Below the pieces are notes generated by a model. That model saw only the letters and a list, made by a program, of their open reading frames with translations. It ran no database searches and had not been told where the DNA came from. The position numbers and the translations under genes are program-made. Positions 1,405-20,417 of a DNA stretch of 29,596 bases are shown in pieces. How positions within the stretch are numbered: position 1 is the first letter of the stretch; each line of letters starts with the position of its first letter. This stretch comes from Pyrobaculum sp. (GTDB lineage Archaea; Thermoproteota; Thermoprotei; Thermoproteales; Thermoproteaceae): positions 13,134 to 42,729 of the forward strand of contig JBKBOT010000013.1 in assembly GCA_046293555.1 (NCBI GenBank), given 5' to 3'.

Positions 1405-3500
1405 GGTGGATAATCTACACGGCCGCCATCGCCATCGCGGTCTTTGAGCTAGGCTTCCAGATGGGGTTTTTCTACTATCTCTACACCCTGGGCGTGCCCT
1501 ATCTCCCGGCTACACTCGACGTACAGCAAGTCCAAGCTGCAGTCATGGCGTTAACGCTAGTGATAATCTTCTTGACGAAACCCCTAAGAGGCCGCCCCCT
1601 CTACGGCGGGGTGCTAGCCGCGCTGGGCTTCACCTCTTTTATCTACATCTTTGTAGTATTTCAAGAACTTATATACAGGGTGGGGCTCCCCACCCCCCTC
1701 GACCTGGCCATGGGCATACTCGCCATAGCCCTAATGCTCGAGGCCACCAGGAGGGCGGCAGGGCCCGTCTTGCCGCTAGTGGCGCTAGCCTTTTTGACAT
1801 ATGGCCTGTGGTACGGCGTCGCCACTTACTCACATACAGAAAACCCCCTAGCCAGAGCCGTGGCGGTATTAATTAACCACCTCTACCTAGCCAAAGAGGG
1901 GATATTCGGCACCCCCCTATTCGTAATGGTGACCTACGTCTACGCCTTCGTCCTCTTCGGCGCCTTTCTCGAAAAGCTGGGCATAGGGAGCTACATCACC
2001 AACTTCGTGTTGTCACTCCTCGGCAGGAAGCCAGGTGGGCCCGCCAAGGTGGCCGTGGTCTCCAGCGCACTTATGGGCACGGTAAGCGGCTCTTCTGTAG
2101 CCAACGTGTTGACTACAGGCACCTTCACCATCCCCATGATGAAAAAGGCAAAAATGCCCCCAGAGATGGCCGGCGGCGTCGAGGCGTCAGCCTCTACCGG
2201 CGGCCAGCTCATGCCCCCCATCATGGGCGCCGCCGCCTTCGTGATGGCAGAATTTCTAGGCAGGCCATATAGAGACGTAATGATATCTGGCTTCCTCCCC
2301 GCGGCACTCTATTTCTTCAGCATGTATCTATTCATAGACTTCTTCGTGAAGAAGCTAGGGATAAAGCCCCTCCCACAAGAAGAACTCCCCGTAGCCCGCA
2401 GGCTGGCACGACAGCTCTACCTATTTGCCCCCATACCGCTTATAGCCTACCTACTGATTGTAGGAATCCCCCCACAACACTCCGCCATCGCCGCATTGAC
2501 CGTAGCGATAGTGGCCTCCATAGCCGCCAAGCCGCTCTCCAGAGGCACAAAGGCGGTCATAACCACCACAGTTGCGGCCATAGGGCTCGCCCTAGCCGCC
2601 ACAGGCGTCAACATCTACACCGTCATCTTACTACTCGGCGTCTTGACCATAATAGCCGTGGCGGCCGTGGGGCTACTATATAGAAAAGCCAGAGACCTCG
2701 CCAGACTGGCCTTCGACGCAGTTGTCTCGGCAGGCGTGACAGTGTCTACAGTCTTTCTCGCAGCCAGCGTCGCCGGCGTCATACAAGGCGTCCTGACATA
2801 CACAGGGCTAGTCACCTCCATAGGCGACATGTTGATCAGATGGACTGGAGGAAACCCCCTGGCCCTACTATTCGTCACCATGGCCATCAGCCTCGTCCTC
2901 GGCATGGGCGTACCCACCACCGCCAACTACATAATCACCTCCCTAGTCTCAGCCAGCGCCGTGGCATACGCCATCTCCAACCTAGGCTACGACTACGCCA
3001 GCGCGCTACTTGCTGCACACTTCTTTGTCTTCTACTTCGGCATACTGGCTGACGTCACGCCGCCAGTAGCCCTAGCGGCATACGCCGCCTCCACTCTTGC
3101 AGGCAGCCACTTCTTCCGCACGGCGCTATACGCCACAAGATTCGCACTAGCCGGCTACCTGGTGCCCTACATGTTTGCCCTACATCCACCCATGTTGGCA
3201 GCCACAGTGACACAATGGACAGCCGACACCATCCTCTCCATAGCACTAAACACCACCTCAGCCATCGTGGGGATATACCTACTCGCAGGAGGGGTAGTAG
3301 GCCATCTAGGCGGCCCCCTCCCCACCTGGATAAGAACGGCACTAGTAGCCACAGCCGTGCTAACAATCATAACAAACCCCTACGAAACGCCAGCAATACT
3401 AGCCATAGCCACAACAGCCCTAATCGCCACCCACCTCAAATACCGCACACAAAAAACCACAACACCACAACCACCCACCAACACAATAAAACAATCTTAA
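1401..3500 (+). CDS. TRAP transporter fused 4TM/12TM permease (DctQM, TAXI type)
   Basis: LEATRR, EGIFG, GGPAKVAVVSSALMGTVSGSSVANV, ASTGGQLMPPIMGAAAFVMAE, LGMGVPTTANY and ADVTPPVALAAYAA; many hydrophobic helices. Confidence 0.95.
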   Translation: MRWIIYTAAIAIAVFELGFQMGFFYYLYTLGVPYLPATLDVQQVQAAVMALTLVIIFLTKPLRGRPLYGGVLAALGFTSFIYIFVVFQELIYRVGLPTPLDLAMGILAIALMLEATRRAAGPVLPLVALAFLTYGLWYGVATYSHTENPLARAVAVLINHLYLAKEGIFGTPLFVMVTYVYAFVLFGAFLEKLGIGSYITNFVLSLLGRKPGGPAKVAVVSSALMGTVSGSSVANVLTTGTFTIPMMKKAKMPPEMAGGVEASASTGGQLMPPIMGAAAFVMAEFLGRPYRDVMISGFLPAALYFFSMYLFIDFFVKKLGIKPLPQEELPVARRLARQLYLFAPIPLIAYLLIVGIPPQHSAIAALTVAIVASIAAKPLSRGTKAVITTTVAAIGLALAATGVNIYTVILLLGVLTIIAVAAVGLLYRKARDLARLAFDAVVSAGVTVSTVFLAASVAGVIQGVLTYTGLVTSIGDMLIRWTGGNPLALLFVTMAISLVLGMGVPTTANYIITSLVSASAVAYAISNLGYDYASALLAAHFFVFYFGILADVTPPVALAAYAASTLAGSHFFRTALYATRFALAGYLVPYMFALHPPMLAATVTQWTADTILSIALNTTSAIVGIYLLAGGVVGHLGGPLPTWIRTALVATAVLTIITNPYETPAILAIATTALIATHLKYRTQKTTTPQPPTNTIKQS

Positions 3501-3520
3501 AGCCGCCATTAAATGTAGAG

Positions 3521-3528
3521 TTAATAAA
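3521..3528 (+). promoter_or_regulatory. Putative TATA box for the leaderless R-M transcript
   Basis: TTAATAAA about 21-28 nt upstream of ATG 3549. Confidence 0.5.
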
Positions 3529-3548
3529 CTAAAGATGCGGTGTTATAA

Positions 3549-4013
3549 ATGACGCGTGAGGCCCAGATACAAGACGAGCTTATCTACCTCATAAAGACTG
3601 TGATCAAAAAATTCAGGTTTTACGGACTCGAGTTTTCTAAAGTGGAGAGAGACTACCCCATAGATAGAAAGAAGGCAGACGTCGTCGTGTTTAAAAAGGG
3701 CGAGGGGCCCTTCCTCTTCATAGAGACAAAAAGAGGGGGCCGACGCGGCAGGCTTTTCGACCCTCTAGACGTCTCTGTGGTGGGGCAGGTGATGGGCTAT
3801 GCGGCGTTGTATAAAAAGAAGCACGGCTATTTAGTGCCATACGTCGCCACGACAAATGGAGAACGTATAGTTGTTTTTAAAACACCAGAAGACGTGGAAA
3901 ACTACATAGACCTCGACGCGGTGGAACGAGGAGAATACCAAAAAGCCTTCAAACCCGGAATGTACCAACAACTCATACAGAAATACATAATTAAAGACGA
4001 GGAGTGGATATGA
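3549..4013 (+). CDS. PD-(D/E)XK restriction endonuclease domain (HsdR_N / type IIG N-terminal-like)
   Basis: E..(VERDYPI)..KADVVVF..FLFIETKR catalytic pattern, a QxxxY helix (QVMGYA) and 'ATTNG'; directly coupled to an MTase ORF. Confidence 0.8.
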   Translation: MTREAQIQDELIYLIKTVIKKFRFYGLEFSKVERDYPIDRKKADVVVFKKGEGPFLFIETKRGGRRGRLFDPLDVSVVGQVMGYAALYKKKHGYLVPYVATTNGERIVVFKTPEDVENYIDLDAVERGEYQKAFKPGMYQQLIQKYIIKDEEWI

Positions 4014-6580
4014 AAAAAGAATACATCCGGTCTTTACTAGAAGACATAGCTGAGGATTTTTGGAAGGGGAGGACACTTGTGGTAGAGCCCACAGAGGCGT
4101 TACGAGAGAGATTTAGAAGTTTTGTAGATGAGGTGGCAGCTGCTATTAAGCCACGCCTAGGAGAAGAGGCGAAGAAAGAGCCGCTAAGGGGGGAGCTTGA
4201 ACGTGCTGGCTACAACCCAGAGGATGAGACAGCGTTGAGAAACTTGGCGCGGATGATGGCATATGTTTTCTTAAACAAGCTGGTGTTCTACAAAGTGTTA
4301 GAAAAAAGCTACAAGCTGCCGTCCCTAACTCTAGACACCACCTCTGCCGCCAAGTTTAGAGAACAGCTAGACTACTTCTTCCAGAAGGCCGTGGAGGTGA
4401 CCAACGACTTCGAGCCAATTTTCAGCACCGGGCTGTACGACAAAATACCAATTCCAGACAGCCGCGAGTTTTTAGAATATGTTGACGACTTTGTCGCCAC
4501 GTTAGACAATGTGGACTTAATAAAGCTGGGGGAGCAGATTGGCTATATCTACGAGGAGTTAATACCGCCAGAGGAGAGACACCAGTTGGGGCAGTTCTAC
4601 ACGCCGCCTTGGGTTTGTGAGCTTATCGTGAGGTGGGCTGTGAGAAGTGGGGACGACGTGGTGTTAGACCCCGGCGTTGGCAGCGGCGGGTTTTTACTTA
4701 AGGCATACCAGCGGCTTGTAGAACTGAAGATAGGCCACACACGCTACGTCCCAGAAGACGTCCACAAAAAGGTGTTGCATCAATTATACGCCGTCGACAT
4801 AAACCCCTTTGCGGCACACCTAACGGCGGTAAATCTCTCTATGAGAAACGTCAGGGCACCCACCACAGAGCTAAACGTAATATATAGAGACTTTTTCTCT
4901 CTCCCCCCTGGCGAAGAGGTTTTAGCGCCTTACGTCATAAAGACGCCGGCAGGCGAGATAAGGCGGAGTTTCGACATACCTGCGGTAGATGCGGTAGTGG
5001 GAAACCCGCCCTACACCAGATGGACAGAAATACCGCAGACAACACGTGATTTGATAACAAAACAGCTAAAAGAAGCCATGAAGAAATACAACCTCACGCC
5101 ACAAGTGGGCAGAGGGGCGGAGATCGGGATATATATCTATTGGATTATACATGCCACACGCTTCTTGAAGAACGGCGGCCGGCTGGGGATGATAATCTCA
5201 AACACATGGCTCCAGACAGACTACGGCATTAGGTTCGGGAAATTCCTACTTGACCACTACAGGATAAAGGCTGTAATCGATTTTTCGGCCAGGCTTTTTA
5301 AAGACGCACTAGTGACCACGTGTATAATATTGGCAGAGAGAGAAAGCGACGAGAAAAAGAGGGCGGAAAACACAGTGGCCTTTATACACATCCCTGGAGA
5401 AGTGGAGATACTAAAAAACGAAGACATAGACGAGCTGCTAAAAGCGGTAGAAACGGGCCAGTCTGAGAAATACCGCGTAAGGCTTGTAAGGCAGGGAGAC
5501 ATACCGCGAGACCAAAAATGGATAACTCTATTCTTCAAGACAGCCGAAGTTTACAGCCATCCTTTGTTGGTCAAATTTGACGAGTTATTTGAGCCGTCGT
5601 ATGGAAATGTGACGTATCTCTACCTAGCCTCCACAGGCAAAATCAGGGGTGTGAGAAACCCAGGCGCCGGCGAGTTCCACTACCTTACTCCCTCTAAGGC
5701 CAGGGGGTTTAACCTAGATATGTGGGCCTACCCCAACAAGCCGTTGGAAGAGGCCTTAGTCTATCCGGCAATAACAAACGCCAGACAGGTCAGATATTTC
5801 ACCTTTGGGGAAGAAGACTGGGAAGAGCTCTGCAAAGCCGACGAGAGGTGTTACATGTTTATAGGCCACATGCCGAGACATCAACTCCCAAAGGACGTGG
5901 AGGGGTATGTCAAATGGGGTGAAACAAAGTGTAGAACAAAAATTAGAGGAAGTAGAGGCGGGGGGAAGTTATGTAGTCAGACAGAAGCGGCGAAAGCTAG
6001 GTCAAAAACAAGCCAGTTTTATGGATGGTATGACCTCGGCGGGGTGATAAAAACGCCGATTATCGCCATACGTCAGGCCTGGCACAAGAGCAGGTTTATC
6101 TGGTGTAAATTCCCCGTAGCGACCTACGACGCAATAATAACACTAATGCCAAAAATCCCCCTAGACGAGCTTCAAATCAAGGCTCTTTTGGCATATCTAA
6201 ACTCGAGCTTTGTACAACATTACATTGAAACTCGCGGCAGAAAAAGCCCAGGCGGAATAATCGCACTTGAACTAAACATAGCCGGAGAAATGCCTATCCT
6301 CGACGTGAGGCGGCTGGATAGACAATGGCTGGAAAAACTCGCCAGGTTGTTCGACGAGTTGGAGGCAGAGGCTAGAAAAATCGGCGGCGCCTCTGAGAGA
6401 GAGCAGTTGGAAAAACTCAAGCCGGCGATATACCGGATAGACGACGTCATAGCCGAGATGTTAAACATCAGCAGGGAGGAGGTAGAGAGGATACAGAAAG
6501 AAGTAGAACAGCTGATAGAAAGAAGAGTCAGCAGAAAGAAGAAAGAAGGGAGCCGGTTTACACTCCTCTCCTTCTTCTAA
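4010..6580 (+). CDS. N6-adenine DNA methyltransferase with C-terminal target-recognition region (type IIG-like M-S portion)
   Basis: LGQFYTP (motif X), VLDPGVGSGGF (motif I), VVGNPPY (motif IV), LAYLNSS and a helical tail. ATG 4010 overlaps the upstream TGA (ATGA) after GAGGAG; alternative GTG start at 4004. Confidence 0.92.
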   Translation: MKKEYIRSLLEDIAEDFWKGRTLVVEPTEALRERFRSFVDEVAAAIKPRLGEEAKKEPLRGELERAGYNPEDETALRNLARMMAYVFLNKLVFYKVLEKSYKLPSLTLDTTSAAKFREQLDYFFQKAVEVTNDFEPIFSTGLYDKIPIPDSREFLEYVDDFVATLDNVDLIKLGEQIGYIYEELIPPEERHQLGQFYTPPWVCELIVRWAVRSGDDVVLDPGVGSGGFLLKAYQRLVELKIGHTRYVPEDVHKKVLHQLYAVDINPFAAHLTAVNLSMRNVRAPTTELNVIYRDFFSLPPGEEVLAPYVIKTPAGEIRRSFDIPAVDAVVGNPPYTRWTEIPQTTRDLITKQLKEAMKKYNLTPQVGRGAEIGIYIYWIIHATRFLKNGGRLGMIISNTWLQTDYGIRFGKFLLDHYRIKAVIDFSARLFKDALVTTCIILAERESDEKKRAENTVAFIHIPGEVEILKNEDIDELLKAVETGQSEKYRVRLVRQGDIPRDQKWITLFFKTAEVYSHPLLVKFDELFEPSYGNVTYLYLASTGKIRGVRNPGAGEFHYLTPSKARGFNLDMWAYPNKPLEEALVYPAITNARQVRYFTFGEEDWEELCKADERCYMFIGHMPRHQLPKDVEGYVKWGETKCRTKIRGSRGGGKLCSQTEAAKARSKTSQFYGWYDLGGVIKTPIIAIRQAWHKSRFIWCKFPVATYDAIITLMPKIPLDELQIKALLAYLNSSFVQHYIETRGRKSPGGIIALELNIAGEMPILDVRRLDRQWLEKLARLFDELEAEARKIGGASEREQLEKLKPAIYRIDDVIAEMLNISREEVERIQKEVEQLIERRVSRKKKEGSRFTLLSFF

Positions 6581-6690
6581 GCCGGGCGGCAGCTACGACA
6601 TATTGCCCGCCGCCTTTAGACGTTTTGCAGCCAGATCGGTTAAGGCAAAGTAGGCTACATAAAGATATTTGAATTCCCTACCTTTTTTAT

Positions 6691-6715
6691 GTTTCCACCC
6701 CCTTTTCAATTCTGG
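6691..6715 (-). CRISPR. Solitary degenerate CRISPR repeat (no array)
   Basis: Minus strand reads CCAGAATTGAAAAGGGGGTGGAAAC (25 nt), 19/25 identical to the Pyrobaculum repeat as I recall it (CCAGAAATCAAAAGATAGTTGAAAC), with a GAAAC 3' end; about 700 bp from cas6. No second copy was seen. Confidence 0.65.
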
Positions 6716-7065
6716 GGGTTGTGGAGTATTGTGTGTTTTCTTGTGTGTTTTTGTGCTTTTCATGTCGTGTAGCTTTTTTGTGTCTGTCTAGCTTCAACGT
6801 TTTTCTAACCTTTGCTTTCTCACGTTGTGACAGTGGTCTCGGTGTCTGTGTTGTGGTTTGGGCTACAGTAGAGAGATTGCCGGATTTAGGTATATGTCTA
6901 CTAGAGGAGTTAGACATCTCTTTGTACGGACGGCATTGGCCCCTATTGCCGTGTCTATTGTCCTTTCTGTGTAGAGAAAAGGAGTGACGAGTTTGAAACA
7001 GATAGGTTGAGCGGTTTTAGCTAAAGTATTTCTAAAAAATAAAACCCATAACATTTCTCACAGTT
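6716..7065 (-). promoter_or_regulatory. CRISPR leader-like AT-rich non-coding region
   Basis: About 350 bp, lower GC, no credible ORF, abuts the 5' end of the repeat, divergent from the cas genes, and contains several inverted repeats. Confidence 0.55.
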
Positions 7066-7069
7066 AATG

Positions 7070-7077
7070 TTTAAATA
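7070..7077 (+). promoter_or_regulatory. Putative TATA box for the csa5-like/cas6 unit
   Basis: TTTAAATA 19-26 nt upstream of ATG 7096. Confidence 0.6.
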
Positions 7078-7095
7078 TTTGTTGAAGTATTGCAT

Positions 7096-7419
7096 ATGGC
7101 ACAGACAAAAAGTGACGCCACAAAGGGAGATCTTATAGTTGACGCACCTGATACATTTCGTCCAACGGTACAACTGAAGATAGCTTACGACGTAGTTGAT
7201 GAGCTTGCCAGCTCTCCAGAGAAGTATTTAACAGCTTTGTATAAACCAACTCGACTGGCGGAAAAAGTCTATAGGCAGCTCTTCGGCAGCGATTATTATA
7301 GGGTGGTGCGTGAGTTTGTGCGTCTGGCTAACAACCCCAACAGGGTTGGAGATAGTTGTGAGGTGGATAAAGTTGCGGAGGTTTTGATTGGGTGGCGGCG
7401 TCGTGGTGGCTCTAGTTAG
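7096..7419 (+). CDS. Small helical protein, Csa5/Cas11-like (possibly a csa5'-'cas8a deletion chimera)
   Basis: YDVVDELASSPEKYLTALYK resembles the type I-A small-subunit pattern YxxVDxLAx..ALY; first gene after the leader; overlaps the cas6 start. Confidence 0.45.
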   Translation: MAQTKSDATKGDLIVDAPDTFRPTVQLKIAYDVVDELASSPEKYLTALYKPTRLAEKVYRQLFGSDYYRVVREFVRLANNPNRVGDSCEVDKVAEVLIGWRRRGGSS

Positions 7420-8200
7420 GGTTGCCTATAGGGTTGGGGAGGCTGTGGTGTTTACTGGTTTTTCTGGCACTATTGTGGAGTCTCTGGTGGTGAAGATTCT
7501 TGGCCCGGATCTACATAACGCTAGCCTTAAGCCTGTCTCTATTACCCCTTTTTTCTACAACGGGAGGCCCGTCGTGGGTAGGGCCGCTATACCTCCTGGC
7601 GGGCGTCTGGAGTTTAGAGTTGGCGTGGCGTATCCCAGCCTCGCCGAGAGGTTTTTGAAGGGGGTTGCAGACGTGGAGCTTTTTGGCAGGAGGCTTTTGC
7701 TTGAAGAGGTGGAGTTTAGAGAGGTGTTTGACGGCCCCATGCCTGACAGCAGGTGTTTTAAGGTGGAGTTTTTGACGCCTGTTAGGTTTGCCGTGCGTCC
7801 ATACATGCGGCGGAGGAGGGCCCTTTTTGACTTTTTCCCCAGGCCTTTTACCCTCTTTAAGTCCGCCGTGGCGCATGGGAGGGGGCTGGGCCTATTGAGG
7901 CTGGGGGCGCCGTTTTTGAGGTGGGTATATACCTACGTGGCTTTGACCGACTTTGGCTGTGGTAGCTGTAGATGTGTGAATAACGTATGTAGGTATAGAT
8001 GTGTCAGGACTGTGGGGCTGCCTAATGGCGGGGTGGCGAGGGGGTTTGTCGGCTGGGCTCTCTATAGGGCTTTTGGGAGGAGGAGGCTGGGGGACATGTG
8101 GAAAGTGTTGAGACTTATGGAGGTTTTTAACGTGGGGACTGGCCGGGGGATGGGCCTCGGCGTCGTGAGGGTAACTCCGCTTGATTGTGGCGTCTCGTGA
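7403..8200 (+). CDS. cas6: CRISPR pre-crRNA endoribonuclease Cas6 (RAMP)
   Basis: N-terminal FTGFSG..LHN..KPVSITP, central VEFLTPVRF, RGFVGW and the C-terminal glycine loop NVGTGRGMGLGVV. Start probably GTG 7403 or 7406 after GGGTGG (the track gives TTG 7388). Confidence 0.9.
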   Translation: MVALVRVAYRVGEAVVFTGFSGTIVESLVVKILGPDLHNASLKPVSITPFFYNGRPVVGRAAIPPGGRLEFRVGVAYPSLAERFLKGVADVELFGRRLLLEEVEFREVFDGPMPDSRCFKVEFLTPVRFAVRPYMRRRRALFDFFPRPFTLFKSAVAHGRGLGLLRLGAPFLRWVYTYVALTDFGCGSCRCVNNVCRYRCVRTVGLPNGGVARGFVGWALYRAFGRRRLGDMWKVLRLMEVFNVGTGRGMGLGVVRVTPLDCGVS

Positions 8201-8609
8201 TTGCCGCGCCTGCCGCCACGGCGGCTAGCCCAACGGCGGCTATTATCGCCAGGTAGGTGGGTGTGGACTCTATTGTCTCTAGGGCGGCGTGGGCCGCGTC
8301 GCCTATTTCTCTTAGTTGTCTCATGAAGGTGGCGGCTTGTGGTATGTAGTTTATATATGTGGCTAGGTCTTGAAGTCCCAGGGCTGCCTGGAGTAGGTCT
8401 GCCAGCCTCGTTATGTATGGCGCCGCGGCTTCTATCGTCTTTATTGCCTCTGTGTATTGGGGGGAGTGGGTGACCTCTCTTAGGGCTTCTACCTTCGCCT
8501 TGTAGCTCGCAATGGTGGGTTGGTACTGTAGATATAGCACATATCCGAGGAGCGCCAGCAGGAGAAACGCCGTGCCGAACCCCATCAGGAAGCCACCTAG
8601 GGCCTTCAT
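8127..8609 (-). CDS. Hypothetical membrane protein (N- and C-terminal TM helices around a helical region)
   Basis: Two hydrophobic segments; TATATATA at 8621-8628 upstream; 3' tail overlaps cas6 convergently by 74 bp. Confidence 0.7.
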   Translation of the reverse strand: MKALGGFLMGFGTAFLLLALLGYVLYLQYQPTIASYKAKVEALREVTHSPQYTEAIKTIEAAAPYITRLADLLQAALGLQDLATYINYIPQAATFMRQLREIGDAAHAALETIESTPTYLAIIAAVGLAAVAAGAAITRRHNQAELPSRRRGPSPGQSPR

Positions 8610-9012: not shown

Positions 9013-10827
9013 CTAGGGGAGTTCGAGGGTGGCGACCTCCTGGAGGGTGTCGGTGTACATCTTTATGGAGTTGGGGGAGATGGTGTATATCCTCTCTCCT
9101 ATGTATATAGCCCGCGTGGCGTGGGGGTGGTTTAGCACCGTCTTTAGGGCTATCTTGCCTCCTGTGAGGTCTATTGCGGCGATGCCGTCTGTATGTGGCG
9201 TGTGTATTGGGATTAGCAGCATGCCGGCGGGGTGTAGCGTCACTGCGTGGTGGTCGTAGAGGGCGGGGCTGTGGGCTTGGCTTAGCTTTAGGGAGGCTTT
9301 TTCCGACATGTCTGTGGGGTTTTTGACGTCAAAGAGGGATATCTTCAGCCCGCCGTCTTCCACGCCGATGGCCAGGAGGGTGTCTTCTGTAAGTGGGTGT
9401 AGGTACTCGCCGTAGCCGGGGGTTTTGACGTAGCCGAGGACTTTTGGCTGTCTTACGTCGGAGATATCTATGGCGTAGAGGGGGTCCACCTGCCTGTAGG
9501 TCACCAGGTAGAGGATGTGGTCTACAAGCCGCGCGGCGTAGATCCTCTCCCCCCTCGCCAGCCCCGTGAGGGAGCTCGCTATCTTTAGCTCTGGAGATAT
9601 GACGTAGACGTTGTTGGAGGTCTCCCCCACGGCCTGCAGCTCTAGGGAGAGGTGGGGTATGGACGCCGTGGTGCAGTTGTTAGGGCTGGTGCACGTCACT
9701 ACCTCTATCTGCCGTGTTGTCAACCTCGCCGTGTGGTTCACCGCGGTGGTGGCCACCACGAGGTGCCGCCGGTGTTCCTCTATTGAGAACTGGTCGAGGA
9801 TCTGTCCGGGCACCTTGACGCCTCCCGCGTACCGCAGCTGGGGTATGTCGAAGGCGTGTATGTTTGAGTGGTCTAGAAAGCTGGCCGTGGAGATATTTAC
9901 CGCCGTCAGGCTGTCGGGAGAGGCGGCGAGTAGGCGCTCTACTAGCGACAGCGCCGTGTGGTACCTCCCCTCTTCTACCAGCTGGAGGACCTCCGCGTGG
10001 CTGGCGAAGGCCTGGAGGGTTTTGGCTAGGGCGCTCTCGTAGGCCGTCTCTGTGGACACCACGTAGAGCCGCCTGTGGCTCATGTAGATCCAGCTGCTAG
10101 AAGACATGAGGAGGGAGAGCTCCCTATGTGCCCCCGTGGCGAGATCTATGGCGGCCACCGTGGCGAAGACGTGGGGGATCTTGTCGACTAGGTAGACCCT
10201 CCCGGGGTCTATGGGAACCCCGTCGACTTTAGGCGCCGTGTGGGGCGCTGCGGGCATGGTGGCGACGAGGTAGACAACGCCGTCTGCCAGCCTGGCGCCG
10301 GCGAGAAGGCCCGTGTAGTTAACCACCGCCACGAGCCGGGCGGAGGCGTCGTAAATATAGACGGTGGTGTTGCCAGAGGTGGGTAGGAGGGCGCGGGGAC
10401 GCCCGGCGGCGGGGAGGACGGGCCAGAATTGGGTGGTTATTACCACAAGTCTGTCTTTCCACAGGAAGACCCCGGCGGCGCCTCTGGCTGGAATTGAGGC
10501 GAGGATCGTGAAGTTCGCCGCGTCGACTATGTACACCCCGCCGCCGGCAGCCGCCGCGATTATTCTGCCGTCTGTCTTCACGACGTCGAGCTCGTCGACT
10601 CCCGCCACCTGGATGTTCGTGGTGGAGAAGCCCACCTGCGTGGGCACCTCCCTGGCCAGCGGCACCACGCCGGAGAGACGCCGGGACTCTTCTAGAAGTC
10701 TCCAGATCTCCTCATAGCTGGAGAAATTTCTGGGGGGCGCCGGAGCCGCAGCGGCGTCTGGCGCCGTCTTTAGGCACAGTAGGGCTAGGGCGAGTAGGGC
10801 CAGGGCGGCCAGGTGGAGGGGCCTCAT
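9013..10827 (-). CDS. Secreted beta-propeller domain protein (Beta_propel / COG4880-like)
   Basis: Signal peptide; FSTTNIQVAGVDELDVVKTDG, GQILDQFSIEEH, GERIYAAR, YLVTYRQVDPLYAID and KTPGYGEYLHP. Start MRPLH at 10827 (track: 10839). Confidence 0.88.
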   Translation of the reverse strand: MRPLHLAALALLALALLCLKTAPDAAAAPAPPRNFSSYEEIWRLLEESRRLSGVVPLAREVPTQVGFSTTNIQVAGVDELDVVKTDGRIIAAAAGGGVYIVDAANFTILASIPARGAAGVFLWKDRLVVITTQFWPVLPAAGRPRALLPTSGNTTVYIYDASARLVAVVNYTGLLAGARLADGVVYLVATMPAAPHTAPKVDGVPIDPGRVYLVDKIPHVFATVAAIDLATGAHRELSLLMSSSSWIYMSHRRLYVVSTETAYESALAKTLQAFASHAEVLQLVEEGRYHTALSLVERLLAASPDSLTAVNISTASFLDHSNIHAFDIPQLRYAGGVKVPGQILDQFSIEEHRRHLVVATTAVNHTARLTTRQIEVVTCTSPNNCTTASIPHLSLELQAVGETSNNVYVISPELKIASSLTGLARGERIYAARLVDHILYLVTYRQVDPLYAIDISDVRQPKVLGYVKTPGYGEYLHPLTEDTLLAIGVEDGGLKISLFDVKNPTDMSEKASLKLSQAHSPALYDHHAVTLHPAGMLLIPIHTPHTDGIAAIDLTGGKIALKTVLNHPHATRAIYIGERIYTISPNSIKMYTDTLQEVATLELP

Positions 10828-10893
10828 GGCTGTACCCACGTCTCTATTTATATGTTATGGAGAAAGTTTTTATCTCTGTGAGGTCTGCCCCCC

Positions 10894-11325
10894 ATGGACG
10901 TAAGGCACTACGCGGTGCTTGAAGCTCTCTCCACTGGGGTGAAGACGGCAGAGGAGCTGGCGGGGGAGGTGGACATGGAGCCACATGAGGTGGAGATTAT
11001 TCTCAACGCCCTTTTGGCACAAGGGCTTGTGGAGAGGCGGGAGAGGGGGCTTTTGTTCAAAAGGGAGGCTTACGGCATTTCTGAAAAAGGCTGGCATGCT
11101 TTAACCCAGTGGCGGGAGGAGGTGAAGAAAGCTGTGGAGAAAGCCGCCGAGCTTAGGCGGGAGGGGAGAGACGAGGAGGCAGACCGGCTTCTCGCCCCCC
11201 TACAGCCCGTCATCCCCTTCCTTCTCGCCAGTGGGGTAATTGAGATGGCCCTCTGGAGTGCCGCCCTTGGGCAGCTCCTCGGCGGGTTGGAAGAAGGGGA
11301 AGGGGGGGATTCGTTAGAGCTCTAG
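10894..11325 (+). CDS. Winged helix-turn-helix domain protein of unknown function
   Basis: TAEELAGEVDM..EVEIILNALLAQGLVER..YGISEKG wHTH pattern; abuts an EamA gene. Confidence 0.7.
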   Translation: MDVRHYAVLEALSTGVKTAEELAGEVDMEPHEVEIILNALLAQGLVERRERGLLFKREAYGISEKGWHALTQWREEVKKAVEKAAELRREGRDEEADRLLAPLQPVIPFLLASGVIEMALWSAALGQLLGGLEEGEGGDSLEL

Positions 11326-12120
11326 ATGTGGCCATATCTCAAGATTTTTTCTGCGGCTTTTCTCTGGTCTACCATTGGCCTCGCCGCCCATTTCGGCCGG
11401 GATTACGTCTGGATGTCTCTAGTGAGGATGTTTGCCGCCGCCTTTTTCGCCCTGGCGGCCAGAGCCCCTCTGACTAGACGGGGCCTTGTGCCAGGCCTCC
11501 TGTTGGGCGGCCTCAGCCTTTCTTATCTCGCCGCAGCGGTTTATGCGGGAGTGGGGCCTGCGGCTTATCTTCTCTACACCGCCCCCCTTTGGACTTTCCT
11601 CCTGTCTTACATATGGGGCGAGAGGGCGACGTTAACAGATGTGGCTGGCGGGGGGCTTATAGTGGCGGCGGTATTCGTAATGTACTTAGCGTCTACAGCA
11701 GGCGAGATAAAACTGATAGGCCTTTTGGCCGGCCTCGCCGCCGGTATTTTTTACGGCGGGTATATAGCTGTGGCTAGACGGTATGCAAAAGAGGGGAGAG
11801 AGATAGAGGCGTCGCTAGGCGCCATGCCGTATACGCCCCTCCCCCTCCTCCCGCTGATGGCTTTAAGCCAACTGCCCAGCCTGGAGGCCGTGTTGGCAGG
11901 TATATACCTCGCCGTTTTTGCCACCATTATTCCATACCTCCTTTTCACCTCCGCCGTGACTAAAGTAAGCGGCCCTAAGGCCTCTGTGTTGGCCTCTATA
12001 GAGGCCGTGTTGGCCGCCATATGGGGCCTCTTGTTGTTAGGCCAAACTCCCGGCGTCTATACAATAACTGCGTATGTTTTAATCACAATTGCAGTGACCA
12101 TCTCTATATTTAAACGGTGA
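11326..12120 (+). CDS. EamA/DMT-family transporter (paralog 1)
   Basis: About 10 TM helices; LLYTAPLW..GER and KASVLASIEAVLAAIWG. Confidence 0.88.
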   Translation: MWPYLKIFSAAFLWSTIGLAAHFGRDYVWMSLVRMFAAAFFALAARAPLTRRGLVPGLLLGGLSLSYLAAAVYAGVGPAAYLLYTAPLWTFLLSYIWGERATLTDVAGGGLIVAAVFVMYLASTAGEIKLIGLLAGLAAGIFYGGYIAVARRYAKEGREIEASLGAMPYTPLPLLPLMALSQLPSLEAVLAGIYLAVFATIIPYLLFTSAVTKVSGPKASVLASIEAVLAAIWGLLLLGQTPGVYTITAYVLITIAVTISIFKR

Positions 12121-12949: not shown

Positions 12950-15301
12950 GTGGATTTCATCCGGGAGGAGGTCAGAAGGGCTAAATCGGCTAATCACAGA
13001 CGGCTTGTAGCACTAGTGGGACTAGACGAGAGGAAACTAGCAGAGACGGCAGCAGTTGTGCTTAAAGAATTCGAGGCGGCAGGAGGCAACGGGACTGGGC
13101 TCTACATGTTTCAGCCGGAGTTTGCAGACGCCAACAGGAGGATGAACTACTTCCGTGACGCCATGGAGGGATCGACGTTAGAGGTAGAGTTTAGGCCCTA
13201 TAAGGACACGCCGAAAATTCTCGGCACTACTTATAATTTCGCAGTGCTTGACCTCATAAACGACCTTAAGCCTAACGACGTGGGGAGATTAGGCGGAGTG
13301 GTGAGAGGCGGCGGGCTGTACGTCCTTCTGGTGCCGCCGCTGGATTGGTGGAAACAATACGTCACCAAGTTTCAATCCACACTACTGGTGCCGCAATTTG
13401 GCCCCCAGCATTTAAGACATAAACTTAAGGAGAGGTTTTGGCGTAGTCTATACAGCCACAGGGGGGTGATAATATACGACGTGGAGAGAGGCCTCTTGTT
13501 GAAATCTTCCGGCGTGGAGGAGGTGGAGCCCCACCAGCCCAGAAAGCCCGAGCCGCCGGAGAAAGCGGTGTTGCCGCTAAAGGTGTACCGCCTCGCCGCG
13601 ACGCAAGACCAGGTGGAGGTTTTGAGGCGGTTTGAGGCTTTTTACCAGAGGCCCAGGGGGAAGGTGGCTCTTGTGGTTATTGCAGATAGGGGCAGGGGGA
13701 AGAGCGCGGCGCTGGGGCTGGGGCTCGCCGGCATGGGCCACAGGCTTAGGAAGGCCAAGTCTAGAGTGCAGATTGTTGTAAGCGCCATGGAGTACTCCAA
13801 CTTGGAGACACTTGTGGAGTTTGCCATCAGGGGGCTAGAGGCCTTGGGCTACAAGCCTGGGGTGGAGAGGGAGGGGGGCGAGGTGAGGGCGATAAAAGCC
13901 AAGGGCATCTTTATCGACGTGGTTACGCCCTACATGCTTCTAAAGAGGGAGAATGCAGACATCGTGGCTATAGACGAGGCAGCCGCCGTGCCGCTTCCCG
14001 TGTTATATGGAGTCCACAAGAAGTTCGACAGGCTGGTTTTCGCCACCACGATACATGGCTACGAGGGGGCGGGGAGGGGGTTCTCCATAAGGTTTCTAAA
14101 ATATCTGAGGGAGTCTAGAGACACCGAGGTGCTTCTCTACGAGATGGGGGAGCCCATCCGCTACGGCCGGGGGGACCCAGTGGAGGGGTGGCTGTTTGAC
14201 GTCTTTCTCCTCAACGCGGAGCCCGCCAGGGTGGAGGGGGGAGATCTGGAGTACGTCGAGAGGGGGGAGGTGGCGTATCTAGGAGATGTGGAGGGCGAGG
14301 AGGCGTTGAGGCAGTTTTTCGGCATATATGTGCAGGCTCACTACCGGAACGAGCCTGACGACCTCGGCATGTTGTTAGAGGCGCCTCACCACTTCGCCAG
14401 GGCTTTGGCGCTGCCTAGCGGCAAGGTGGTGGTATCGGTAGAGCTGGCCTTCGAGGGGGCTCTAGACGACCTCTCCATAGACCAGGCCTTGAGGGGGCTT
14501 AAGCTCCCTGGCAACATAATTCCAGACCGTTTCCTCAAGTACTGGAGGGCGCCCGAGTTCGCAAAGCTGAGGGGGTGGCGTATTGTCCGTATTGCCACAC
14601 ACCCCGAGCTTCAAGGCAGGGGGCTGGGCAGCGCCATGCTTAGAAAAATCGAGGAGGAGGCCGCCGGGGCGGGGGTGGACTGGGTGGGGGTGGGGTTTGG
14701 CCTATACGGCCGGCTGTTGAGATTCTGGATTAAAAACGGCTATGTGCCTATCCACCTATCGCCAGAGAGAAACCCCACGTCGGGGGAGTACAGCGTCTTG
14801 TTGGTAAAACCTCTAAGCAAGAAGGCGGAGGAGTTTGTGAGGTATGCCAACGTGGAGTTTAGGAGGAGGCTGGTTCACTCCCTCATGGGGCCCTACGGCG
14901 ACATCACGCCGGAGGAGGCGGAGCTGTTGTTGACAGACTGGGGGTGGGATGTAGACAGCCCGCCGGCCCTCTCTAGGAACCAGATAGAGAGGCTGGTGGC
15001 CTACGCCTACGGCCCCATGACTTATGAAAACGTCACAGACGCCATATATATGTTGGCAGTTCGGTATTTCTACAGCTCCAAGAGGCCCAGGCTGCCCGAC
15101 GTAGCCATCAGGGCGTTGATAGGCAAGGTCCTCGAGGCCAAGCCCTGGAGGGATGCGGCGGAGGCTGCCGGCATCCGGCGGGGCGACCTCATGTTGATAC
15201 TTAGAGAGGTGGCGAAGGTACTCCTCTTCTACTTCTACGGCGGCCAGTTCCAAGTGCCGATATTTGTGGTGGGGACAGTCAGGGGGAGAAGTTATATATA
15301 A
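12950..15301 (+). CDS. tmcA: RNA cytidine acetyltransferase TmcA/Nat10 (helicase + GNAT)
   Basis: [36 protein letters not shown] and [18 protein letters not shown]; GTG start after a TTTAATAT box. Confidence 0.93.
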
Positions 15302-19562: not shown

Positions 19563-19616
19563 CGCCCACACGGCGGGGGGCACCCTCGTGCCTACGTCGG
19601 TAAAGAGAGGTTTTTG

Positions 19617-20417
19617 ATGTGGCCCTACCTCAAGATCTTCTCGGCGGCGCTCCTGTGGTCTACTATCGGCCTTGCCGCACATTTTAGCGGCGATTACGTC
19701 TGGACGGCAATCTTGAGGATGGGTATAGTGGCCGTATTTACGATAGCGGCGTGGGGGCCTCCCCGCAGGGGCGGGCTTCTGCCCGGCTTGTTGCTAGGAG
19801 GCCTTTGTACTTCCTATCTAGCCGCGGCGATTTACGCCGGGGTGGGGCCTGCGGCCTATCTTCTCTACACCGCCCCCCTCTGGGCGACGGCTATTCTCTA
19901 CACGTGGGGCGAGAGGCCCTCTAGGCTAGATGTGTTGGGAGTTGTCCTCATACTCGTGGCGGTAGTCATAATGTGGACGGCGTCTGCCACCGGCGAGATA
20001 AAGCCGGTGGGCTTCACAGCCGGCCTCGCCGCTGGGTTTTTCTACGGCGCCTATATAGCTGTGGCGAGGCGGTATGCAAAAATGGGGAGAGAGGCAGAGG
20101 CGTCGCTAGGCGCCATGCCGTATACGCCCCTGGCCGTGTTGCCACTATTTGCCATAATTGAAAACCCCCTGCCCACACTAAAGGCCACGCTGGCCGGCAT
20201 CTACCTCGCCATATTTGCCACGTTGATTCCCTACAGGCTGTTTACCTCCGCCGTGACGAAGGTAAGTGGCCCCAAGGCCTCTGTGTTGGCCTCCATGGAG
20301 GCCGTCCTAGCCGCCCTATGGGGCGCGTTAATCCTCGGCCAGACCCCCGGCATATACACCACAGCCGCCTACATGTTGATAACCACTGCAGTACTCCTCT
20401 CCATATTTAAAAAATAG
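19617..20417 (+). CDS. EamA/DMT-family transporter (paralog 2, close relative of 11326..12120)
   Basis: Same MWPYLKIFSA start and SIFK end as paralog 1, with long identical blocks. Confidence 0.88.
   Translation: MWPYLKIFSAALLWSTIGLAAHFSGDYVWTAILRMGIVAVFTIAAWGPPRRGGLLPGLLLGGLCTSYLAAAIYAGVGPAAYLLYTAPLWATAILYTWGERPSRLDVLGVVLILVAVVIMWTASATGEIKPVGFTAGLAAGFFYGAYIAVARRYAKMGREAEASLGAMPYTPLAVLPLFAIIENPLPTLKATLAGIYLAIFATLIPYRLFTSAVTKVSGPKASVLASMEAVLAALWGALILGQTPGIYTTAAYMLITTAVLLSIFKK

Follow-up and report, generated by a model that had tools for sequence, protein, structure and literature searches.

Why would a genome keep a complete cas6 gene beside a single repeat-like element, a leader-like region and a short open reading frame (ORF), with no complete effector gene next to it? 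The question is raised by a stretch of 29,596 nucleotides (nt) from a Pyrobaculum sp., referred to here as the window, and by the DNA at positions 6593 to 8200 within it. An original prediction, made from the sequence letters, had offered two explanations: a collapsed type I-A CRISPR-Cas locus, whose cas6 is kept for other arrays, or a minimal module consisting of Cas6 and a single-repeat regulatory RNA. Our analysis favors the first explanation. We consider it likely that the region is a decayed type I-A CRISPR-Cas locus whose retained cas6 serves the other arrays of the genome in trans; gene stubs, a decayed leader and a fusion ORF lie in the locus, arrays occur on 20 contigs, and no other complete cas6 was found. 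The locus is a decayed paralogous type I-A locus and not a new minimal module or a new kind of system.

The window corresponds to positions 13134 to 42729 of contig C13 in the source draft assembly G000 (1.75 Mb, 145 contigs, estimated to be 96% complete). Window coordinates are used for all features of the locus (Table 1); contigs of the same genome carry C-numbers and relatives carry G-numbers.

Table 1. Features of the decayed locus, in window coordinates (aa, amino acids; GC, guanine plus cytosine)
Feature	Position	Strand	Basis or remark
3' stub of an unknown gene, ~25 codons	6593-6670	-	77% over 56 nt; the counterpart is the 3' end of ORF C51:4664-5431(-), 256 aa
Degenerate CRISPR repeat, 23 nt, GAATTGAAAAGGGGGTGGAAACA	6692-6714	-	15 matches, with gaps, to GAATCTCAAAGAGAGGATTGAAAG
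Decayed CRISPR leader	6715-6865	-	Homologous to G000 leaders; 43% GC
cas4 5' stub, ~17 codons, with indels	6866-6917	-	Start codon 6917-6915; aligned to the C57 cas4 start
cas2 3' stub, ~16 codons, 5-nt deletion	6918-6965	-	Aligned to the C57 cas2 3' end
TATA-like box, TTTAAATA	7070-7077	+	26 nt upstream of the start (ATG) of the 107-aa ORF; leaderless layout
Fusion ORF, 107 aa: csa5 (cas11a) 5' half and last ~40 codons of cas8a2 (csa4)	7096-7419	+	Homology of each half
Intact cas6, 265 aa, GTG start	7403-8200 (ORF from 7388)	+	Start set by alignment with G001

The retained cas6 gene

The cas6 gene is full length, as had been predicted, and its frame is unbroken. The product scored above the cutoffs of TIGR01877 (73.9 bits versus 58.65, profile positions 2 to 200 of 200) and PF10040 (43.5 bits versus 25) and matched the PADLOC Cas6 model over positions 4 to 222 of 223 (E value, 6.5e-48). 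It also keeps the His-containing N-terminal motif and the glycine-rich loop named in the original prediction: L37, H38 and K43 of the LH..K motif and G245, G247, R248, G249, M250, G251, L252 and G253 of the loop GTGRGMGLG do not vary among the nine sequences aligned. Judged from this alignment, His38 is the putative catalytic residue. Searches of the PDB gave no match, either with the single sequence or with a nine-sequence profile.

Cas6 is 64 to 68% identical to its homologues in eight relatives (closest, 67%). In these comparisons the proportions of nonsynonymous (pN) and synonymous (pS) differences were 0.21 to 0.27 and 0.69 to 0.82, respectively. The ratio of nonsynonymous to synonymous substitution rates (dN/dS), which averages over long branches and does not isolate the time since the collapse, was 0.13 to 0.16 in the six pairs with a computable dS; the other two pairs were saturated. 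cas6 is under purifying selection, and the relaxed selection that the original prediction had listed as a mark of simple decay was not found.

Compared with the eight relatives, this Cas6 has an in-frame insertion of nine residues, RCVNNVCRY, in a Cys-rich loop (27 nt, window positions 7955 to 7990, codons ~186 to 196). The inserted DNA resembles a partial tandem duplication (GTAGATGTGT ... TATAGATGTGT).

When three Cas6 models were run against G000, the window gene was the sole match. A protein search located a second copy on C62 (locus L030, positions 3263 to 3825), behind cas8a-cas3'-cas3''; reading this copy takes at least two frame changes, and the contig end truncates it, while the upstream 3.2 kb are intact. 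Thus, the cas6 attached to effector genes looks broken, while the cas6 of the collapsed locus is whole, and the latter is the only complete cas6 found in G000.

Arrays and effectors elsewhere in the genome

A k-mer scan found CRISPR arrays on 20 contigs of G000, with the 24-nt repeat GAATCTCAAAGAGAGGATTGAAAG and close variants of it. Searches of the genome placed Cas7/Csa2 on C57 and C100, cas1 on C57 and a Cmr2-type Cas10 on C46, and Cas8a2 (PF09703) gave 10 matches on five contigs. C57 shows the textbook layout: one strand carries cas7, csa5 and csa3, the opposite strand csa1, cas1, cas2 and cas4. The cas7, cas5, cas3 and cas8a genes that define a type I-A system are not found in the decayed locus; such genes lie on C57, C100 and C62 and, for Cas8a2, on the five contigs. 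The earlier description "effector-less" fits the locus but not the genome, which has Cas7, Cas8a2, Cmr2 and the cas8a-cas3'-cas3'' genes in other places. Processing of the other arrays of the genome in trans is the most likely reason why cas6 alone was kept.

The original prediction had also stated that cas7, cas5, cas3, cas8 and cas1 are missing from the window. This is correct for intact genes; the window does, however, contain pieces of cas2, cas4, csa5 and cas8a2. The search covered the 26 ORFs of the window with Pfam and the window DNA by tblastn with Csa1, Csa3, Csa5, Cas1, the N terminus of Cas4, Cas7, Cas8a2 and Cas6; Cas5 and Cas3 were covered by Pfam only.

The 107-aa ORF is a deletion fusion

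The 107-aa ORF upstream of cas6, whose existence we confirmed, matched no Pfam or NCBIfam family. It had been called Csa5-like, which is true of its N-terminal half; its C-terminal half is derived from Cas8a2. Residues 10 to 62 are 62% identical to a Csa5-like protein of 141 aa (P0002; E value, 5e-22), and residues 7 to 78 share 49% identity with the Csa5 that G000 itself encodes on C57. The PADLOC Cas11a model (PDLC01395) aligned to residues 10 to 61 over profile positions 3 to 54 of 121 (E value, 5.2e-15) and does not extend over its full length, as opposed to the full-length Csa5 of C57, which covers positions 7 to 121 and sits between csa3 and cas7. Nor is the ORF placed as csa5 would be, directly upstream of cas7: the next gene is cas6, and the window contains no Cas7. 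PF09702 was silent on the ORF, but it was also silent in all 14 control genomes.

From residue 51 or 62 to residue 101, the ORF is 41% identical to residues 208 to 258 of the 259-residue Cas8a2 of C52 (E value, 1e-11). The same part matches the C termini of the Cas8a2 proteins of C50, C79 and C124, and these proteins match PF09703; the ORF itself does not, and only its C-terminal ~40 to 50 residues align with Cas8a2. In four metagenome loci, cas7...cas8a2 operons include a full-length cas8a2 whose product has LFG.DYY at the equivalent C-terminal place. Since the ranges of similarity to Csa5 and Cas8a2 overlap at codons 51 to 63, the junction lies within positions 7246 to 7284. The ORF reads seven codons past the usual W(K/R)P end of Cas8a2 and overlaps the start of cas6 by 17 nt. 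The joining of the N-terminal half of csa5 to the end of cas8a2 means that one deletion removed cas7, cas5, cas3', cas3'' and most of cas8a2, in frame.

G000 has unusually many Cas8a2/Csa4 paralogues, on contigs C35, C50, C52, C79, C93 and C124; that on C124 is a C-terminal fragment, and C52 has a tandem pair.

The TATA box that had been proposed in front of the ORF is present. The csa5 genes of C57, G012 and G002 have boxes at -25 to -29 (TTTAAAAA, ATATATAA and ATTAAAAA, respectively), and by its likeness to them TTTAAATA is a putative csa5-type promoter, which would place cas6 about 300 nt behind a promoter of this type.

The fusion ORF, or at least its cas8a2 part, could itself be functional, either as a coupling ORF that brings ribosomes to the cas6 GTG or as a shortened Cas11-like subunit. 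We think this unlikely. The in-frame junction retains the native csa5 start and promoter, as a functional ORF would, but a deletion is in frame by chance in one of three cases. Three of the 16 positions invariant in seven Csa5 homologues are altered (H24Q, L49P and N58R), including a Leu-to-Pro change, and so is the second G of the invariant GGD motif of Cas8a2. ESM Atlas gave no usable feature match for the ORF; confidence in its model is low (mean predicted local distance difference test score, 0.45), and the structure matches are unrelated. The chimera occurred nowhere else in the protein and metagenome sets searched: a word-index search for the architecture returned six candidates, one of which was real and was the ORF itself; seven matches among 1.84 billion representatives included no chimera; and the metagenome contigs held no relatives of it. 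A profile-profile comparison of Csa5 and Cas8a2 gave a probability of 0.05, so the two halves are not joined at equivalent positions of one fold. Most likely, the fusion ORF is a scar without a function of its own.

Joining at homologous positions had been considered as a candidate when MAFFT aligned Csa5 with the Cas8a2 C terminus, and it was rejected on the hhalign result. Against solved structures, the Csa5 profile gave a weak match to a Cas11a structure (7r21; E value, 0.027) that ranked below designed coiled coils.

Relics on the minus strand

The remaining parts of the locus were located by blastn of window positions 6581 to 7095 against G000, followed by direct alignments. Positions 6866 to 6965 are 78% identical over 118 nt to the C57 junction of the cas2 3' end and the cas4 5' end (blastn E value, 8.9e-19), with two 5-nt deletions and one 1-nt insertion in total; one of the deletions and the insertion are in the cas4 stub. 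The cas2 stub translates to ...TERTIDTAIGANAVRTKR versus ...DRRTIETAIRIGPTPPARR in the Cas2 of C57. Homology to cas4 stops at ...TCTCTACTG, the point at which homology to CRISPR leaders starts.

An AT-rich leader-like region had been predicted, and a leader homologue is indeed there, though not in the most AT-rich stretch, which is 6966 to 7095 (31% GC). For that stretch no homologue was found, and it is promoter or spacer DNA. The relic leader is 67% identical to the leader on C26, 64% to those on C34 and C4, and 57% to that on C99. Its local alignment score was 35, compared with 11.9 ± 2.1 (maximum, 25) for shuffled sequences, and blastn against C26 gave an E value of 3.3e-5. The alignment has a gap of ~17 columns over the AAAAACTTAAAAA block and a second gap in the middle of the leader. 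AAAAACTTAAAAA is a promoter-like motif that, according to Bernick et al. 2012 (PMC3396285), is conserved in all 37 arrays of six Pyrobaculum species with only three polymorphisms. It is absent from positions 6690 to 6900 at up to two mismatches, and its sole match in the window is inside cas6; the relic thus does not have the AAAAACTTAAAAA near the first repeat that a functional Pyrobaculum-type leader has. The upstream leader block TTTATAAAACGTCGTGCA is gone as well and is replaced at the junction with the cas4 stub.

Directly after the leader end ...CCCCCA, where live arrays have GAATCTCAAAGAGAGGATTGAAAG, lies the degenerate repeat. What had been described as a repeat-like 25-mer can be recognized as 23 nt of repeat by its abutting the leader end, but it is weak. 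The best ungapped match to the 24-nt repeat anywhere in the window is 15/24, with four such sites, all outside the relic. As a likeness of this degree is at chance level in the window, the relic repeat was identified by position and not by score. A parse as GAAT+TGAAAAG with an internal 14-nt deletion is equally possible. The 8-nt handle region reads GTGGAAAC(A), compared with ATTGAAAG in the canonical repeat. The Rfam family CRISPR-DR45 gave nothing in positions 6550 to 7120 at E values up to 10, where only chance-level Rfam matches were obtained, and Rfam at its gathering threshold gave nothing in the whole window. In a control on a live array of G000, CRISPR-DR45 found seven repeats with 20.3 to 41.1 bits, the degenerate last repeat still scoring 20.3. 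Two or more family-matching repeats with a spacer, as in a CRISPR array, were not found; there is one degenerate element only. Both the leader and the repeat are probably dead.

The second explanation in the original prediction was that the leader and the single repeat are a working regulatory unit, from which a Cas6-processed CRISPR RNA (crRNA)-like RNA would guide an effector to a cas promoter. The repeat relic adjoins a leader homologue near cas6, and Shmakov et al. 2023 (PMC10120712) report that, of 139 type I-A loci, 43% have repeat-like sequences and 6% have mini-arrays; they also report mini-arrays upstream of cas6 in type I-B. Nevertheless, we judge a regulatory unit very improbable here. 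There is a single element with 15 of 24 matches, even with gaps, that CRISPR-DR45 does not detect; its handle is altered; both conserved leader blocks are gone; and the element is not conserved in G001. When the 42-nt flank of the element was compared with window positions 6900 to 7120 and with the cas promoters of C57, the longest exact matches were 6 to 9 nt, below the shuffle maxima of 11 to 12. Regulatory mini-arrays are recognized by a partial match to a cas promoter of at least 10 bp and by conservation, and neither was found. The regulatory spacer test was also negative for both spacers of the G001 mini-array.

The outermost relic, at 6593 to 6670, has the peptide KYLYVAYFALT.LA.K in common with the 256-aa ORF of C51, a full-length paralogue for which no Pfam or PADLOC family was found. 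This stub is the outer edge of the relic on the restriction-modification side.

The layout in a separate assembly

Might the layout have been created by assembly of a metagenome bin, through chimeras formed where cas sequences repeat or through the collapse of arrays? The CRISPR regions of G000 are fragmented across a draft of 145 contigs. At C4:21440, C17:9623 and C26:12560 and on C37, a canonical leader is followed by exactly one perfect repeat within long contigs, and ~15 short contigs are pure arrays. The single-repeat leaders on long contigs are most likely arrays collapsed by the assembler, so array counts and positions in G000 are unreliable.

For the decayed locus itself, we give the idea of an artefact almost no credence. 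In a separate assembly of run X1, a public hot-spring metagenome run that may be the source sample and so provides an independent assembly but not independent data, a single contig of 1482 nt over positions 6555 to 8037 crosses all four junctions. It differs from the window at nine single letters and one gap. Five of the differences are in cas6, three synonymous and two conservative (A61V and S188N), and none is in the 107-aa ORF, where ~2 were expected (not significant). A contig that carries these differences across the junctions shows that a second strain variant has the same layout. Furthermore, the relic repeat and leader are diverged and not the perfect copies that an assembler would collapse, and the stubs share only 78% identity with their C57 counterpart.

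Relatives and a parallel collapse

The original prediction had asked whether relatives carry a full cascade and array at this place and whether the layout is unique to the strain. In the libraries searched, the exact layout was seen in G000 only. A full cascade next to cas6 exists in G002, where cas6 follows csa3-csa5-cas7...cas8a2 at a distance of 3 kb, with order and direction unchanged, though not necessarily at an orthologous site, as the genes flanking the window locus are not syntenic in relatives. The DctM neighbor of the window locus has homologues in only 2 of 20 relatives, and the beta-propeller neighbor is far from cas6 in complete genomes (in G002, for example, 684 kb versus 973 kb). 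Other arrangements were also found. csa5 and cas6 are divergent in G012, and cas6 stands alone, beside csa3/csa1/cas1/cas4, in G019, G017 and G005; in G019, cas4, leader and array have the same direction as the relics of the window. Genome contigs searched with Cas6 for close relatives of the chimera yielded none with the single protein and six loci with the alignment, most of them from genomes already in the set.

The most similar case is G001 (locus L022, positions 9132 to 10898), with a three-repeat mini-array without canonical leader, a longer cas8a2 stub and cas6. The stub reaches ~17 codons further upstream than that of the window and abuts the mini-array. A GTG-started ORF of 39 aa ends 11 nt upstream of cas6, and a stop codon has replaced the Trp that is conserved in the W(K/R)P end. 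Neither state can be derived from the other, which indicates independent, parallel collapses of a similar ancestral layout. Across 24 cas6 places in 20 of the 29 family genomes, a stub directly upstream of cas6 occurs in these two.

In G001 (96% complete, 20 contigs), the 24-nt repeat of G000 occurs 53 times and cas6 is intact, but the assembly gave no match to Cas7 (TIGR02583), Cas8a2 (PF09703) or Cmr2 (TIGR02577). It may be without known effectors or may have a type missed by those three models.

Between the window and G001, the cas8a2 stubs are 58% identical in protein sequence, and their identities at the first, second and third codon positions are 0.74, 0.76 and 0.45; the corresponding values for cas6 are 0.72, 0.82 and 0.38, with synonymous sites saturated between the two genomes. 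This coding-type pattern speaks for a functional stub that brings ribosomes to cas6, as do the open frames that end at or near the cas6 start in both genomes. So does the promoter region of cas6 itself: a clear T/A box at -24 to -28 is, in our judgment, present in 11 of 18 relatives' cas6 genes, and the cas6 genes of the window and G001 have weak A/T octamers only (ATAAAGTT at -36 and AAAGTTTT at -28), which fits cas6 as a past and present internal cistron. On the other hand, the change of the conserved Trp to a stop in G001 argues against selection on the stub, and two recent deletions explain the conservation pattern equally well; we take the pattern to be what two fairly recent deletions left behind. 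That cas6 requires the last ~40 codons of cas8a2 as an upstream reading frame is an unlikely proposition. Two diverged genomes lost their type I-A effector genes independently, and yet in both the stub stayed open and conserved in protein sequence and ends at or near the cas6 start; in the window, the csa5 start and promoter took it over in frame. If the proposition were true, cas6 expression in these archaea would depend on translating the preceding cistron, which would limit how a CRISPR-Cas operon can decay.

A scenario of decay

A decayed locus with cas6 retained, the explanation we prefer, suggests the following history. The ancestral minus strand would have carried array, leader, cas4, cas2, cas1 and csa1, and the plus strand (csa3,) csa5, cas7, cas5, cas3', cas3'', cas8a2 and cas6. 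At least four deletions, the order of which we can only infer, would have reduced it. One would have left a single degenerate repeat of the array; another would have removed the body of cas4 and the upstream part of the leader; a third would have taken away the 5' part of cas2 and, beyond it, the genes upstream of csa5; and a fourth, from the middle of csa5 to the last ~40 codons of cas8a2, would by chance have been in frame and created the 107-aa ORF. Today, cas6 is most likely cotranscribed with the fusion ORF on a leaderless bicistronic RNA from the old csa5 promoter. Its product would process, in trans, the pre-crRNAs of other arrays by cutting GAATCTCAAAGAGAGGATTGAAAG 8 nt from its 3' end, and the resulting crRNAs would feed effectors of types I-A and III-B whose genes lie in other parts of the genome.

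Several points weigh against this account. The codon-position pattern of the cas8a2 stub, which is like that of cas6, fits a translated and constrained stub as well as two recent deletions; the deletion end points in the window and G001 are only ~17 codons apart; and a stub upstream of cas6 is found in merely 2 of 24 cas6 places. The fusion ORF is open, keeps its native start and ends 17 nt inside cas6, which is what translational coupling requires. An intact cas8a2-cas6 adjacency was seen at none of the 24 cas6 places in the 20 genomes surveyed, so the ancestral operon is deduced rather than observed. A further cas6 could lie in an assembly gap of the draft. Finally, promoter use, cotranscription and the silence of the leader relic are things that we infer.

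As it stands, the locus records its own decay legibly: each deletion has left its mark among the stubs of four genes, the dead leader and the in-frame fusion, and the spared gene is the one that the other arrays of the genome appear to need. Together with the parallel collapse in G001, this suggests that cas6 outlasts the other genes when a type I-A locus disappears, and selection seems to act on the 5' context of cas6 and on its promoter rather than on the locus as a unit. For annotation, two cautions follow: a short "Csa5-like" ORF beside cas6 can be a deletion scar, and a lone cas6 does not equal an effector-less system.

Neighboring genes

The wider surroundings in the window are housekeeping genes. 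On its left side, the relic is flanked by two genes of restriction-modification type. They encode an HSDR_N-like ORF and an N6-methyltransferase of 858 aa, the latter with type II/IIG matches in Pfam and PADLOC; no separate nuclease gene was recognized. The pair (3549 to 6580) has a paralogue at C51:3-642, with ~50 nt of 3' flank in common (88%). On C51 the 256-aa gene is convergent with the restriction-modification paralogue, and the window retains only its 25-codon stub.

On the other side of the locus, positions 8127 to 8609 of the minus strand encode a protein of 160 aa that has hydrophobic ends and belongs to no family; its ORF is convergent with cas6 and overlaps the 3' end of cas6 by ~70 nt. 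Its sole homologue among the loci of the eight relatives (46% identity) is beside the stub-cas6 locus of G001, on the opposite side. Two EamA-family transporter genes (11325 to 12114 and 19616 to 20411), 8.3 kb apart, are 73 to 76% identical in DNA sequence.

Comparison with known systems

In Thermoproteus tenax, the type I-A interference operon reportedly has the order csa5-cas7-cas5-cas3'-cas3''-cas8a2. Compared with such operons in C57, G002 and G012, the fusion ORF has the promoter, start and N-terminal half of the first gene and the C-terminal ~40 residues of the last gene. The genes between them are absent from the window, and no Cascade could be built from the locus. With the Cas11a small subunit the fusion ORF shares the N-terminal block ..HLEIAYD..DELASSPEKY.., but it matches 52 of 121 model positions, has Cas8a2 as its C-terminal half and is altered at the three otherwise invariant positions.

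The regulatory mini-arrays of Shmakov et al. 2023 (PMC10120712) resemble the relic in that a repeat-like element is intergenic in a cas locus, near cas6. They differ from it in having what the relic lacks: a second repeat, a promoter motif, a partial match to a cas promoter and conservation, which for the relic would be in G001.

The closest comparison is with the Pyrobaculum loci of Bernick et al. 2012 (PMC3396285). That study describes submodules cas4'-1-2-4 and cas6-7-5-3'-3''-8a2 and relocated cas6 genes, several of them apart from effector genes, and lists "degenerate arrays." The window has the same CRISPR architecture, 24-nt repeat family and leader motif. It differs in that its cas6 stands behind a csa5'::'cas8a2 fusion and not behind a TATA box of its own at -24 to -28; the parts of the Pyrobaculum CRISPR literature that we covered contain no description of such a fusion. 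A further difference is that the stubs of the window let the loss be followed gene by gene. The kind of locus is already known, and this instance is an unusually informative one in which the history of deletions is legible.

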